Below, one piece after another: positions 21,248 through 46,112 of a stretch of DNA of 64,000 nucleotides. The notes under the pieces are model-generated. The model did not search any database. It saw only the letters and a list, made by a program, of their open reading frames with translations, and was not told the DNA's origin. The translations under genes were made by a program, and so were the position numbers. Source of the DNA: Octopus sinensis (taxonomy: Eukaryota); contig NC_043001.1 of the NCBI RefSeq assembly GCF_006345805.1, positions 68,138,001 through 68,202,000 of the forward strand, in the 5' to 3' direction. Each line of letters begins with the position of its first letter. The first letter of the stretch is position 1.

Positions 21248-21323
21248 CATATATATATATATATATCTATATATATATATATTATATATATATTATATAT
21301 ATATTATATATATATATATATGA

Positions 21324-21404
21324 TAAAATTGGAACGATACAGAGAAAATTAGCATGCCCCTGCGCAAGAATGACACGCAAATTCATGAAGTGTTCCATAT
21401 TTTT
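21324..21404 (+). pseudogene. U6: U6 snRNA pseudogene lacking the 5' stem-loop
   Basis: TAAAATTGGAACGATACAGAGAAAATTAGCATGCCCCTGCGCAAGAATGACACGCAAATTCATGAAGTGTTCCATATTTT matches the U6 3' ~80 nt incl. ACAGAGA box and AGC triad; about 5 differences, two CpG-type. Confidence 0.93.
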
Positions 21405-31540: not shown

Positions 31541-32054
31541 TTAATAGTTATCGCCATACTAATATGGCAGTCTATAAATAAGACTACAAAAGTCTTATTA
31601 TAGACTGCCATATTAGTATGGCGATAACTATCAATATCCAGTAACGCTGCCGTAATCTCCTTTAGAGAGACTTAGTAATTTTAATATTTCTATTATTGAA
31701 AACAAGTGGATGTATTCCACTGTAACTAGGTAAATAAAATCTTCGAACAGACGGTCAGTAGCGACACCTGCTGGTTCTGACTACGCTGCATTGATAAAGG
31801 GCAGCAACCCTGAAACATGTCTGCAGATGTCTGACTAGCAAAGTGAAGCGGCTGACCTCCCCTGTTCGAAGGTTGTAATGGACGCAGGTTCGTGTGTCAT
31901 ATAGCTAGCTAGAGGCGGTGGCCTCTTGGAGCTAATCAGCGACAGCTTTAGTCTTATTTATAGACTGCCATATTAGTATGGCGATAACTATTAATATCCA
32001 GTAACGCTGCCGTAATCTCCTTTAGAGAGACTTAGTAATTTTAATATTTCTACT
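31541..32054 (+). mobile_element. Retrozyme-like element: ~360-nt unit, ~103-bp terminal direct repeats, 45-bp 5' inverted arm, embedded in (TA)n
   Basis: Direct repeats 31591-31692 and 31950-32052; inverted arm 31541-31585; central hammerhead. Confidence 0.8.
31770..31840 (+). ncRNA. Type I hammerhead ribozyme, U3-A8 core variant
   Basis: ctgca TTGATAA aggg cagcaa ccct GAAA catg TC tgcag; stem I extends via gac/gtc and gctggt/actagc. Confidence 0.8.
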
Positions 32055-32072
32055 ATATATTATATATATATA

Positions 32073-38990: not shown

Positions 38991-39233
38991 ATGACAGTAA
39001 AACTAGTAGTAGAATATTATGTGTGTGTATATATATGTGTGTGTGTGCGTGTGTGTGTGTGTGTGTGTATGTGTGTGCATGAGTGTATGTTTATGTGTTT
39101 GTATGTATGTGCATATATGTATTTATAAAATATACTCATCTACGTATATATGCATTAATATATATATATATACACACATATATATGTGTGTGCGTGTTTG
39201 TGTGTGTGTGAGTGTGTAAGTACGTGTGTCTAT

Positions 39234-39390
39234 GTGGCTGTGTGGTAAGAAGTTTGCTTCCCAATCACATGGTTCCGGGTTCAGTCCCACAGCGTGACAC
39301 CTTGGACAAGTGTCTTCTGTTATAGCCTCAGGCTGATTATAGCCTTGTGAGTGGATTTGGTAGACGGAAACTGAAAGAAGTCCGTCGTAT
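39234..39390 (+). mobile_element. SINE family A 5' half, interrupted by the PLE fragment
   Basis: Family A head and body up to GAAGTCCGTCGTATA. Confidence 0.88.
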
Positions 39391-39394
39391 AAAT

Positions 39395-40290
39395 TTATTG
39401 CAAAAAGCAACACAAATCGCTAACAAATGCGAAGTTTTACAAAACAAACACGAAACCAACGGTTAAAAAATGTGGACGCCCAAACTGTGGAACCTGCCCC
39501 AACTTACTTGAAGGCTCGGATTTCCTTTTCAAATAAGGAGAGAGATTCACAATTAAAACTAGTTTCAGTTGTGCCTCTAAGAACCTAATTTGTGTAATAA
39601 CCTGCTCGGGTTGTGGACACAACTATATTGGACAGACGAGTATGATCTTGAGATGGAGAACCACTCTACATAAAGAGCAAATACGTTTCCCGCAATACAG
39701 GTAAATCCCTCTCAGTGAACATATAGAAAAATGTGAAGATAACATCAAACCAAATTTCACAGTCTACCCATTCTACAAGTGCAAAGACACAATTTCTCCA
39801 CAAGAACGTTTGAAGAAACACTTTTCATCGAAAAATACAGAACACGTCTTAATATGCACGCATAACCAAATTTTATCTTTTTGCATATTTCAGTTCACGA
39901 GTTCATCACTGTACATAAATCCCCTCACTAAACAAGTTTTTCGAAATTTTTTGTGTGTACATATATATATTCCCCCCCCCTTACCGAAAACTGAACAGCT
40001 GTCTCCCTTGTCCACAACAATAGCAATAATAACGATAATCACTTACGTCTCCTTATTTTCTACTTTTGAAGTCATTCACTCTTAAATATCATCATACACA
40101 ACATGAATAACATTTTTTTTCTTAAGAAAATACATATTCAAATAAGTAAACGTTAATATCATGAATAGCGAAAGCGAAACCAGTCGATATATTATACTAT
40201 TTAATGTGTGTATATTTTCCTTTTTTAATTTCTTTTATATATATTCAACTCACAACGTGGGGATAGTCGAAATTCTTTTTTCTGTTACTA
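39395..40290 (+). mobile_element. Penelope-like element 3' fragment: Zn-finger linker + GIY-YIG endonuclease pseudogene + 3'UTR
   Basis: CGRPNCGTC..FSCASKNLICVITCSGCGHNYIGQTS..LHKEQI..LSEHIEKC..FIEKYRTRLN with stops; CxxxxCxxC linker as in Neptune-type PLEs. Confidence 0.9.
40156..40190 (+). ncRNA. Minimal type I hammerhead motif, A3-U8 core variant, in PLE 3'UTR
   Basis: atatc ATGAATA gc gaaa gc GAAA ccag TC gatat. Confidence 0.7.
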
Positions 40291-40324
40291 CTACTACTAC
40301 TATATATATATGTACGTTTGTATA

Positions 40325-40526
40325 TGTGTGTCTGTATTTGTCCCCCCCCAACATCACTTGGAAACCGATGCTTGTGTATTTGCATCCCTGTAACTTAGCG
40401 GTTCCGCAAAAAAGACCGATAGAATATGTTCTAGGCTTACAACGAATATGTCCTGGAGTCGATTTGTTCAAATAAAGGTGGTGCTCCAGCATGGCTGCAG
40501 TAAAATGACTGAAACAAGTAAAAGAA
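40325..40526 (+). mobile_element. SINE family A 3' half
   Basis: Continues family A after the PLE insertion. Confidence 0.88.
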
Positions 40527-40647
40527 TATATACACGAGTCAGTGGACATGTAACTCACACGTTTAGTGGGAGTTACATATATTATTTAAAACAGTTTGAT
40601 TCAATTTCCGAAACTTAAAGTAGCACGAATCAAACTGATTTTTTTAA

Positions 40648-40732
<85 letters not shown>

Positions 40733-40743
40733 TAATAATAATA

Positions 40744-43360
40744 AACGCCAACGCTTCTTTGAACAAAACAAAAAGTTCAACTCCAACCCCAAAAAGTTCT
40801 ACCAAGAACTGGGCAAAAATAAAATAGAAGTCACTGCAGCACCAACGGCAGAAGAATTGGAAGAATTCTGGAGAGAAATATGGTCGGCGAACGAACAACC
40901 CAAAAAAAGGAGTATCAAAATAACAAACTCAGCATCTGAACAACTTTGGACCCCCATAACAACTGAAGAGGTCACCCAGGCACTGCAAAGACTAAGCAAC
41001 TGGAAGGCACCTGGGCATGACAAGATCCCCAACTTCTGGTTGAAATATCTAACAGGAATGCACAAAAAGCTGGCTGAAAACTTTAATAACATACTAGCAG
41101 AGCCAGAGACAATGCCTGAATGGCTCACGAAGGGGAAAACCATCTTAATTCCCAAATCAAATGAAACAGCAAAACCAGAAAACTACAGACCAATAACCTG
41201 CCTCCCTACTATGTTCAAGGCATTTACTGCAGTGATATCGCAAATGCTGAACAAGCACCTGGACGAAAACAAACTGTTCCCAGAAGAGCAGAAAGGATGC
41301 CGCAAAGGCTCATATGGCTGTAAAGATCAACTAATGATTAATAAAGCCATAACTGAAGACAGCCAGAGAAAGAAGAAAGGCCTCAGTATGCCCTGGATTG
41401 ACTACAAAAAGGCGTTTGATAGCATCCCCCACACATGGATCCTCGAAACACTAGCCATTAACAAAGTAGCACCAACAATCATAAAATTCATAGAGCACTC
41501 TATGAATAAATGGCAAACAGTCCTACATCTCCAAACAAAAGAGGGACTCATGAAAACCAAAGACATCCCCATTAGAAGAGGAATATTCCAGGGAGACACG
41601 CTCTCTCCACTCCTTTTCTGCTTGTCACCTCTATCTGATATACTAAATAGAACTGGATGCGGATATAAATGTTACGGCAAAACGATCAGCCACCTTTTAT
41701 ATATGGATGACCTAAAACTATACGCTGCAAATGACAAACAGCTGGAAACACTATTAAAGACAGTTCATGGATTTACCAAAGAAATAGATATGAAATTTGG
41801 ATTAGAAAAATGCGCCAAAGTAACCATGAAAAGAGGAAAACTAGTTAAGAGTAACAACATCACACTAGATAAAACCAATGAAATAAAAGAATTAGACCAA
41901 AGCCAAACTTACAAATACTTAGGAATCCATGAACTAGATAAGACACAACACACACAAATGAAAGAGAAAATAAAAAAAGAATATTATAGACGAGTTAGAT
42001 CAATACTAAAAACAGAGCTCAATGCTAAAAACAAGATAATAGGTATCAACACTTTAGCTGTCCCAGTTATAAGTTACAGCTACAATATCCTTAACTGGAC
42101 ACGAAATGAACTGACCAAAATAGATAGGAAAACAAGAAAAATAATGACAGGATCTAGGATGCATCACCCAAAATCTGACATAGAAAGACTATATATACAA
42201 CGTATAGAAGGTGGTAGAGGCCTTATACAGCTGGAAAACTACTATAAAATAACCACCATAGGACTTCAAAAATATCTACTCCAGAAGGAAGGAAAACTGA
42301 TACAAATAGCGGCAAAACACGAGCAAAATAAAAAACTGTTCTCAGTATTTAAGGAAGCTGACAAATACAAACAAGAAATCATACCACCTAATAAACATGA
42401 AGAAGAAAAAGAAGAAGATGAAGAAACAACAAAAGCTATAAAACAAATGAAATCCAAACTAAAAGTAGAACAGCAACGAACCATGATAAAACGATGGCAA
42501 GAAAAGCCCCTTCATGGTAAATACTAGACTAAACTAAACGCAAAAGAAATAGACAAAGAAAAATCCCAGCAATGGTTGAGAAGCTCAGGACTCAAAGCAG
42601 AAACAGAGGGATTTTTAATTGCAGCACAAGACCAAAGCCTCCCCACCAGAAATTACCAAAAACATGTAATGAAAAGAAATATTACAAGTAACTGCAGAAT
42701 ATGTGGAGATGGACAAGAAACAATAAATCATATTATCTCTAGCTGCCCAGTCCTGGCTAAGAAGGAATATATTCACAGACATGACAGAGTTGGAACCTAC
42801 ATACATTGGAAGCTATGCCAACATTATGGAATAACAACAGAAAAAAGATGGTATAGGCACACACAAGAAAAGGTCACAGAAAACGAGAAAGCAACCATAC
42901 TCTGGGATATGCCGATACACACAGATAGAGAAATTAAGGCCAACAGACCAGATATAGTTGTCAGAGATCATGAGGAAAAAAATGCTTTCTAATTGATGTA
43001 TCAATACCGGCAGATGACAACGTGTCTCCAAAAGAAATGGAGAAACTCTCAAAATACAAAGACCTGGAAATAGAGGTAACTAGAATGTGGAATCTGAAAA
43101 CAGAAACAATTCCTATCATAGTAGGTACATTAGGCATGATAAAAAAATATTCAGACAAATACATAGCAAAAACACCAGGACTTACAAACACATATAACAT
43201 ACAGAAAATTGCACTACTAGGCACTGCACACATCCTACGCAGAACACTTTCCATACAATAACCATCAGAGCATCACAACAAATCACAGCACATACCCAAG
43301 GCACACAGAGCTGCGCTCGGTAGTGAAGTGAAAGCACGCTATAAAAATAAAACTACTGAA
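40744..43360 (+). mobile_element. Dong/R4-like RLE LINE family A, 5'-truncated, nearly intact RT-CCHC-RLE coding region
   Basis: KAPGHD, NYRPITCL, EEQKGC, DYKKAFDS, GIFQGDTLSP, LLYMDD; CRICx8Hx4C; RPDIV..IDVSIP..KEMEKLSKY; premature TAG at 42525 and a frameshift near 42975; (TAA)n on both sides. Confidence 0.96.
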
Positions 43361-44413: not shown

Positions 44414-44620
44414 ATTAATTCCTTTATTGGCCACAAGGACTTACGTAGAACAACATGAAATGACAAAACAGGACGATACAAAGGGTTTTAAAACAAGCAT
44501 ACGATATGATATCACACCCCTGAATAATAAAACCAATGGAAATGTATGGAGTAGCAGAAAATAGGAAAAGCCTTATGTTGAATAGCATGAAACACTGGAG
44601 AACAGAATTAACAGCAGAGA
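44414..44620 (-). mobile_element. Tx1 3'UTR fragment
   Basis: ttaattcc..tattggccacaagg..acaaaacaggacga..tacaaagggtttt matches 58547-58635. Confidence 0.75.
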
Positions 44621-44626
44621 ATTAGT

Positions 44627-46112
44627 GTGTCCCTACTGATCTTCGTGCTGGGAATGATCCCCTTGAGCGAAATACTACAGAAACCCATGTCGGGGTATGG
44701 TCTGGAAAGAGGTAAGCGAAAACTGAACCACTTGCTAGAAATGGACGACCAAAAACTGAGGCAAAACTACATAGCCTTGTTCAGTCTGTGCGGATTTTTG
44801 TCCAATGATATTAAGATGGAGTTTGGACTCTCTAAATGTGTTACAATGGTGATGAGAGGAGGAAAGCTTTTCAGAACAGAAGGCATATGGTCGCCAAGTG
44901 ATGAAATGATGAAGGCAATTCAACATCAGTCCAGCTATAAATACCTAAGAATACTTGAGGCAGATGCAATGAAACACAATAACATGAAGGAAAAGACAAA
45001 AAGAGAGTATCTGCAGCGAGAGAGAAAAGTTTTGGCTTCAAAGCTAAATGCCAGAACCATAATTTCGGCAATGAACTCGTGCTCAGTCGCCGTAGTTCTG
45101 TATGACGCTGGAGTCCTAAAATGGACAGAGGAGGAGCTATGGGAGATGGCCAGGAAGTGAAGAAAGCTTCTAACGATGCATGGTGCCCGTTATCCACTTG
45201 CGGGCACTGATCGCCTATACATGAAGAGAGCAAATGGAGGAAGAGAACTGATAAGTGTGGAAGACTGCATGCGTATCGAACTCGAGAGCTCAATAAGATA
45301 CCTAGCCCGAAGTGAGGAAACCTTGCTAGTGACAGTTAGGAACGAGGGAGTATTGAGAGCAGAGAAAGAACAGAAAACAAAGGAAGAAATGCAAAAAGGA
45401 CATGAAAATGATTTATGCAAGAAGGGACTACACATTCAATTCCATGCAGCCGCAACAGAAGTTGCTGGAAAATATAGGAGGGAACACTAAAAAAAAGAGA
45501 CCGAGAGCACAATACTGGCAGCACAAAACCAATCGTTGGCCACGAACTGGGAGGTCAACCTTAGGAATGAGCAAGTGCCTCCACTCTGCCGCATCTGCAA
45601 TAGAGTGTATGGAACCATTGCCCATATCACAAACAAATGTCCTAGACTTATCCAAAACCATTATAAGTTGTGGCGACACAATCAGGTAGCGAAAGTACTA
45701 CATTGGAAACTGTGCAAAAAGTGGAGGCTAAAGAGAGAGGCAAGACGTGGTATGAGCACAAACGGTAGAGAGTGGCGGAGTCGGAGAATAGCAAAATCCT
45801 CTGGGATTTCCCAATCCAAACAGTTCAGGTGCTAGAGTATAACAGAACGGACCTCGTGGTGGTGGACAAGATGCACCACATATGCTATATAGTTGATGTT
45901 GCATGCCTCTTTGGCCCACGAATAGTCAAGAAGGAAGGCGAAAAGATAGATGAATACAACCTTCTTAAATACAAAATAGCCCGGCTATGGAAAATGAAGA
46001 AGATGAAGAGAGTGCAAATTATTGTTGGGTCCTTCGGATCAGTATCAGAAAGGAGGTAGCAAGTCCGCTATGCATGAAAGACTTCAGGAGTTCCAACAAA
46101 ACCTGTGATAAA
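44627..46112 (+). mobile_element. Dong/R4-like LINE family B, 5'-truncated, decayed
   Basis: LNHLLEMDD, MEFGLSKC, YKYL, DRLYMKRANGGR, CRIC..H..C, ILWDFPIQT..DLVVVDK..IVDVAC. Confidence 0.9.

Follow-up and report, generated by a model that had tools for sequence, protein, structure and literature searches.

A predicted A3–U8 hammerhead variant in the 3′ UTR of a Penelope-like element

The host element and its surroundings

The window analysed here is a 64,000-nt stretch of DNA from Octopus sinensis. On its forward strand lies the broken end of a Penelope-like element (PLE), followed by an untranslated region that carries a small hammerhead motif at 40156–40190. A separate hammerhead motif is found further upstream. 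The principal features are:

39393–39865, + strand: 3′ end of a PLE ORF, truncated at its 5′ side and broken, with a cysteine linker and GIY-YIG endonuclease (tblastn of protein P0002)
39866–40250, + strand: 3′ UTR or pseudo-LTR (pLTR) of the element, right boundary approximate (overlapping contigs of four runs)
31786–31826, + strand: U3–A8 hammerhead with a 4-bp stem II and the palindrome ACAUGU, separate from the PLE element (descriptor and model match)

By tblastn, P0002, a protein with RT and GIY-YIG regions, matched 39393–39818 with 75% identity over 146 residues, the match continuing in a second frame at 39803–39862. The ORF fragment is interrupted by two in-frame stops (read-through residues 46 and 102) and by a frameshift near 39810–39820. 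Searched alone, it gave no Pfam match. Its relatives match both RVT_1 and GIY-YIG; in P0002, the nearest of them, these matches (E 3e-6 and 4e-4, respectively) are below the Pfam cut-offs. The window keeps only the endonuclease end, and it is in P0002 that a C-terminal GIY-YIG domain is seen to follow a telomerase-like RT. The only named relative is a protein of Octopus bimaculoides, which is 70% identical over half of the query. Within the read-through, we found a cysteine linker, C-x4-C-x2-C, whose cysteines are conserved without, or almost without, exception across 46 relatives. A CX2-5CxxC zinc-finger linker before the endonuclease defines EN+ PLEs of the Neptune/Nematis type (PMC8557442), so the linker points to a Neptune/Nematis-type PLE, a class assignment in which the two types are not told apart.

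Contig pieces extend over the UTR (for example, record 1 of run X1 over 39790–39967 and record 27 of run X2 over 39941–40194), and coverage all but ends after 40248. The first core residue of the motif, A3, sits 296 nt past the stop of the GIY-YIG fragment. This agrees with the initial annotation, which had placed the motif about 300 nt downstream of the end of a GIY-YIG ORF, and the similarity to P0002 confirms that the fragment is real. In the related loci L032 and L035, the region equivalent to the UTR separates tandem ORFs. Tandem ORFs were seen only in these two relatives, and no second motif copy in tandem is present in the window. A non-LTR retrozyme, made of short non-coding tandem repeats with one hammerhead each, was considered as the host and rejected, as the motif is a single copy joined to the end of a PLE ORF.

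Other repeats surround the fragment. Two different short interspersed repeats flank it, at 39234–39398 and 40301–40530, and each recurs several times in the window, at 69–84% identity. Directly after the PLE fragment, a near-complete non-LTR retrotransposon ORF spans 40590–43261 (+ strand; RVT_1, E 1e-28), with a cysteine-rich region downstream of the RVT_1 match that we take to be a restriction-like endonuclease. A second non-LTR retrotransposon fragment, of similar type, lies at 44612–45160 (+ strand). Elsewhere, at 21299–21404 (+ strand), a U6 snRNA copy (96.2 bits) has its 5′ hairpin replaced by (AT)n and is probably a retroposed pseudogene.

Anatomy of the motif and tests against chance

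The motif is laid out as follows, in hammerhead position numbering:

40156–40160, + strand: stem I, 5′ strand; five Watson–Crick pairs with 40186–40190, covarying over 13 aligned motifs
40161–40167, + strand: core positions 3–9 (A3 U4 G5 A6 A7 U8 A9), column for column with the CUGANGA of relatives
40168–40175, + strand: stem II of 2 bp (G10.1–C11.1 and C–G) with a GAAA tetraloop (fold; length and layout as in L035 and L044)
40176–40185, + strand: G12-A13-A14-A15.1, loop III, U16.1 and C17 (sequence, cofold, family contigs)
40186–40190, + strand: stem I, 3′ strand, pairing with 40156–40160

On re-reading, the sequence letters and coordinates of the motif agreed with those first reported. Nine of the 11 canonical core letters (CUGANGA plus GAAA) are kept; the exceptions are C3, replaced by A at 40161, and G8, replaced by U at 40166. 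A Watson–Crick 3–8 pair is nonetheless possible, here as A–U and in all 13 aligned rows, judged by sequence complementarity. Stem II follows A9 with no bulged base. The GAAA segment occupies 40176–40179, A15.1-CCAG-U16.1 occupies 40179–40184, and C17 is at 40185. Stems I and II, together with A15.1–U16.1, give the three-way junction of a type I hammerhead, with the end of stem I open. The NUH cleavage triplet is present as GUC at 40183–40185, and by hammerhead numbering the cut is predicted after 40185. By its sequence, the motif is a homologue of minimal type I PLE hammerheads and lies where one is expected; its self-cleavage is a prediction.

A motif this short could be a chance match in AT-rich DNA. 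The fold alone carries no thermodynamic signal (z = 0.24; 107 of 200 shuffles fold equally well), and the Rfam hammerhead models are absent from the 96 Rfam matches in the window and from the three in 39900–40400. Moreover, a looser A3–U8 pattern run on viral contigs returned 30 core-like matches, none with a stem I of more than two pairs, which we dismissed as chance. Against this reading stand shuffle tests, an independent model, the homologous position of hammerheads in relatives and a palindrome in the element's family (both described below). A descriptor that allowed any Watson–Crick 3–8 pair, with stem I of at least 5 pairs, stem II of at least 2 and loop III of at most 6, matched twice in the 64,000-nt window, at 40156–40190 and at the U3–A8 motif (31791). 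Among 4000 shuffled UTRs one gave a match, and among 40 shuffled windows none did. Because the descriptor settings were fixed with the motif already known, the independent test is a covariance model that draws on 11 hammerheads from related PLE loci and on no window sequence. Under this model, with E from a short and rough calibration, 40153–40193 ranks first of 19 window matches (28.7 bits, E ~1e-6), and the U3–A8 motif ranks second (16.4 bits, E 0.009). We consider a chance match highly improbable, and the idea already largely refuted.

Covariation over the 13 aligned motifs extends to 10 of 11 pairs, which change on both sides; none of 500 shuffles reached the score, which is inflated by kinship among the sequences and by a structure drawn by hand. 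At pair 3–8, the aligned rows comprise 11 C–G, one A–U and one U–A. By our own arithmetic over 11 core positions, two random core changes would hit both 3–8 partners and stay complementary about once in 165 cases (1/55 × 1/3).

The U3–A8 motif appears to have a separate history. No match to its region was found by blastn with 39201–40600, and no PLE ORF match occurs near it. The unrelated stems of the two motifs suggest that the A3–U8 and U3–A8 cores are independent in origin. The initial annotation held that the A3–U8 motif directly links variant ribozymes to a PLE lineage. This overreaches, as a 3–8 variant (U3–A8) was tied to PLEs in 2014 (PMC4209133). Nor does the U3–A8 motif of the window supply such a link, as it shares no sequence with the PLE element and has no PLE ORF nearby. 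It sits inside an insert of about 500 nt (31541–32056) surrounded by (TA)n; the insert carries a direct duplication of 107 nt (31591–31696 and 31950–32056) and, at its left end, an inverted repeat. It resembles a pLTR fragment from a different PLE family, non-coding and with an intact palindrome.

The element's family and its relatives

To follow the motif beyond the window copy, we drew on contigs that aligned on 39790–40270 at 80% identity or more, in 4 of 21 runs (X1, X2, X10 and X15, from four coded organisms). The runs gave 1058, 929, 450 and 232 such contigs, most of them less than 95% alike; these numbers and this divergence fit a multi-copy family. Overlapping contigs cover the stretch between ORF end and motif, and among those listed none spans both ORF and motif with 31 letters on each side; two joints, 39843–40143 and 39878–40159, have sides of fewer than 30 letters and were left out. 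The identity cut-off would hide any divergent C3–G8 sister families.

Among the 40 listed of 107 rows of differences from the window, one falls inside 40154–40192, an A>G change at 40182. The G accounts for 96%, 86%, 95% and 90% of summed contig depth (64614/66995, 8004/9301, 26412/27680 and 752/834), and restores the palindrome of loop III, where the window copy has A. Paralogues had been predicted to carry a palindromic loop III (CCGG), and the majority of the family (86–96%) does. In the listed rows, no majority change is found at the other core positions, G10.1–C11.1, C17 or the palindrome in the four runs, 40182 being the change that restores the last. The motif is, in these contigs and for the 40 of 107 rows listed, conserved across family copies. 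The contrast with the flanks is weak, with 1 listed row in 39 motif positions versus 39 in the other 442. In each of the four runs, summed contig depth peaks at the motif; as a measure unsuited to ranking the parts of a gene, it is not taken as evidence of selection.

The two variant positions themselves, 40161 and 40166, are without a row among the 40 of 107 listed. From the per-run totals by kind of change, X1, X2 and X10 have no A>C site of at least 10% among their unlisted rows, and X15 has one; C3 is therefore below 10% in three of the four runs. X15 has no unlisted A>T site, so that U3 is below 10% there. Unlisted T>G sites (2, 1, 1 and 1), as well as those of the kinds T>A, T>C, A>G and the single A>C of X15, could be minority states at 40161 or 40166, and the lowest best-run share among listed rows, 0.59, suggests that unlisted rows are indeed minority states. 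A3–U8 is probably a family trait, with U8 the likely majority letter, and the low share of C3 upholds the earlier proposal of a natural variant as opposed to a decayed C3 in the window copy. A3–U8 could instead be confined to the window copy or a minor subfamily, the family being otherwise G3–C8, U3–A8 or A3 with G8. The 67 unlisted rows leave room for this, as in most runs they include A>G, A>T, T>A, T>C and T>G sites; in addition, no run contains half of the stretch's sampled words, and the window copy is decayed. However, a majority change at such deep sites should rank with 40182 and with 40152, which is also among the listed majority differences, and the low shares of C3 in three runs and of U3 in the fourth count further against it. 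We regard this alternative as unlikely.

The decay of the window copy is evident in its folding and its end. When two family-type (G40182) copies are cofolded, stems I and II are kept and six intermolecular base pairs form stem III, at −13.3 kcal/mol, whereas two window copies, with their broken palindrome, cofold into a different structure with no double hammerhead. The loop III duplex alone is predicted at −8.3 kcal/mol with the family letter versus +1.4 kcal/mol for the window copy. Just after 40194, the window copy leaves the family sequence (loose ends in 43, 30, 16 and 5 contigs of the four runs). The window copy is decayed and probably dead.

Related elements were located by a search with a 10-protein alignment, the 46-protein alignment being too divergent for this use. 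It returned 25 loci in metagenome contigs and one weak locus in prokaryote genomes; none was found in viral contigs, where 36 candidates were looked at. Hammerheads occur in 15 of the 26 loci, with 18 motifs, all of them C3–G8. Near-duplicates among the positive loci (L032/L041, 99%; L037/L039/L042; L036/L045; L035/L044, 89%) reduce the 15 to about 10 families. Of the 11 loci without the motif, several are truncated or have too little sequence beyond the ORF (L034, L049 and L051), and L040, L043, L048, L050, L055 and L056 have long tails. In 14 loci, the endonuclease match ends roughly 67–256 nt before the first motif; in L053, this distance is 1022 nt.

The hammerheads of these loci (L031–L054) share with the window motif their place and, in most, the loop III ACCGGU, which is also that of the window's family. 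They differ in having C/G-rich stems I, where that of the window is A/U-rich, and C3–G8 in place of A3–U8. L035 and L044 combine C3–G8 with the 2-bp stem II and 4-nt loop of the window motif, and stem II often has two pairs in natural hammerheads described in PMC3088659; the short stem II is thus not the exceptional feature that it had been taken for. The endonucleases of the related loci are 32–52% identical to the window fragment over their best segments. In an endonuclease tree whose base is open and which lacks named references, C3–G8 loci fall in at least three separate branches, from which C3–G8 is likely to be the ancestral core state. A3–U8 was found in none of the 18 motifs, and the exact family-type A3–U8 pattern has no match in the metagenome contigs.

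Two further features of these loci were observed. In L031, L032, L036, L037, L038, L046 and L054, stem II opens with U opposite U and not with G10.1–C11.1, a mismatch described as tolerated at the start of stem II (PMC3088659). At L041:2458–2497 (− strand), an inverted fragment of another PLE carries a C3–G8 hammerhead in which just 7 nt separate A9 from G12, making it smaller even than the window motif.

Known hammerheads and a possible mechanism

A full-text literature search, with most subscription papers outside its reach, found no natural A3–U8 hammerhead. The 56 representatives in Fig. S3 of PMC4209133 comprise 53 C3–G8, two U3–A8 and one U3 with G8, with no A3–U8 among them, and A3–U8 is likewise absent from the 34 rows of File S2 of PMC8557442. 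U3–A8 has been described in Schistosoma Cercyon PLEs, with about 1,300 hits (PMC4209133, published in 2014), and several natural U3–A8 examples are given in PMC3088659. Like A3–U8 in the window, these represent natural covariation at the tertiary 3–8 pair, in a PLE family. We reason, though, that U3–A8 retains a pyrimidine at 3 and a purine at 8 and is reachable through a U–G wobble, whereas A3–U8 reverses this order and needs two transversions from C3–G8 or U3–A8 alike.

In its general form, the motif resembles the minimal type I hammerheads of PLE pseudo-LTRs (Cervera and de la Pena 2014, PMC4209133), with which it shares the type I layout, a short stem I, G10.1–C11.1, a palindromic stem/loop III suited to dimers (in the family majority, though not in the window copy) and a place in the pLTR behind the GIY-YIG ORF. 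It differs from them in its 2-bp stem II (at least 3 bp in the 56 representatives), in having no extra base between 9 and 10.1, and in A3–U8. The Anolis Poseidon PAc hammerhead (PMC11167929) is, like that of the window, a PLE pLTR hammerhead, and its 3–8 pair has been tested, with C3G/G8C giving partial rescue. It has the canonical C3–G8, however, its ORF starts inside the hammerhead, it belongs to the Poseidon clade without a cysteine linker, and it cuts with protein. The small PLE hammerheads of Lunse, Weinberg and Breaker (2017), as summarised in a review (PMC6765202), have a short stem III and cleave as dimers. Our finding refines a known hammerhead class and does not define a new one.

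The reading that we favour, at somewhat better than even odds (roughly 0.55), is that the motif belongs to a PLE family in which a minimal type I hammerhead changed from C3–G8 to A3–U8 before the family spread, and which would cleave slowly as a dimer, probably with the aid of protein. Under this proposal, the ancestral C3–G8 core would have become A3–U8 ahead of the expansion into many copies, and a tandem PLE transcript would carry two copies of the motif. Their ACCGGU palindromes may then form a shared 6-bp stem III and a double hammerhead, as the cofold predicts. With chemistry taken from the literature, G12 would serve as the base and the 2′-OH at position 8 (of U8, held by A3) as the acid, and cleavage of the RNA after C17 would be slow and would probably require the element's protein. 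The 3–8 pair positions the catalytic 2′-OH. This 2′-OH has been proposed as the general acid and G12 as the base (PMC6155905); with the 2′-OH as acid, a change of base at position 8 is in principle tolerable as long as pairing with 3 is kept. Help from protein is suggested by analogy with the Anolis PLE hammerhead, which needs its protein to cut (PMC11167929), and minimal PLE hammerheads are reported not to cut as monomers and to cut weakly as dimers or trimers (PMC4209133). It is possible, though we offer it only tentatively, that the A3–U8 family, multi-copy across several related genomes, is nearly dead as naked RNA and cuts in the cell by way of the element's protein or the dimer fold.

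The main rival is that A3–U8 is family-wide but does not cut, being the relic of an element that transposes without it or a structure for dimerisation or protein binding. A full double-mutant scan of a type III hammerhead is reported to have rescued the 3–8 pair with the G:C swap alone, by implication not with A:U; activity was low in all the remaining double mutants of that region (PMC9901934). In addition, hammerhead-dead Anolis PLE RNA still inserts in vitro, which indicates that selection on cleavage may be weak, and no Anolis reads were found to end at the cut site (PMC11167929). Naiads have spread without canonical hammerheads (PMC8557442), and the weak fold of our motif (z = 0.24, as above) is compatible with a relic. 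On the other hand, a relic would not be expected to combine two mutually complementary core changes with other core positions, G10.1–C11.1, palindrome and C17 that are all free of listed majority changes in four runs. We judge a non-cutting motif to be a doubtful but serious reading.

Cleavage in cells by way of protein or dimer fold, should it occur, would make this the first multi-copy natural A3–U8 hammerhead within the literature searched, and PLE families in which CUGANGA descriptors find no hammerhead would hide such variants. The core search string used in PMC8557442 is cuganga, a blind spot by which an A3–U8 family is missed. In the same paper, the need for cutting by PLE hammerheads is called unclear, and an A3–U8 family bears on whether they must cut at all. 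A family that fixes A:U is also a natural test of how far a host element or protein can buffer a weak ribozyme.

Another origin for the variant would be start-codon capture, in which C3A made positions 3–5 an AUG used by the element and G8U then kept the pair. There is a precedent in the Anolis PLE, whose ORF starts in the hammerhead and is cut 26 nt past the start (PMC11167929). In the window, the predicted cut lies 25 nt after the A, and the frame is open to 40475. In relatives, however, the next ORF starts outside the motif, downstream of position 3 by 136 nt in L035 and by 142 nt in L032, and the family frame, hand-read through the loose-end consensus, stops after 18 codons in three of the four runs. 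We therefore hold start-codon capture to be quite improbable.

Between the hammerhead and the RT-endonuclease ORF, several of the related PLE loci contain a separate upstream ORF (L035:3534–4715; L032:2228–2869; L036, L039 and L045). That of L035 encodes 393 residues with no Pfam match above cut-off and is 31% identical to that of L032. Canonical EN+ PLEs are described as single-ORF elements, although an optional ORF1 appears in the legend of Fig. 1 of PMC8557442.
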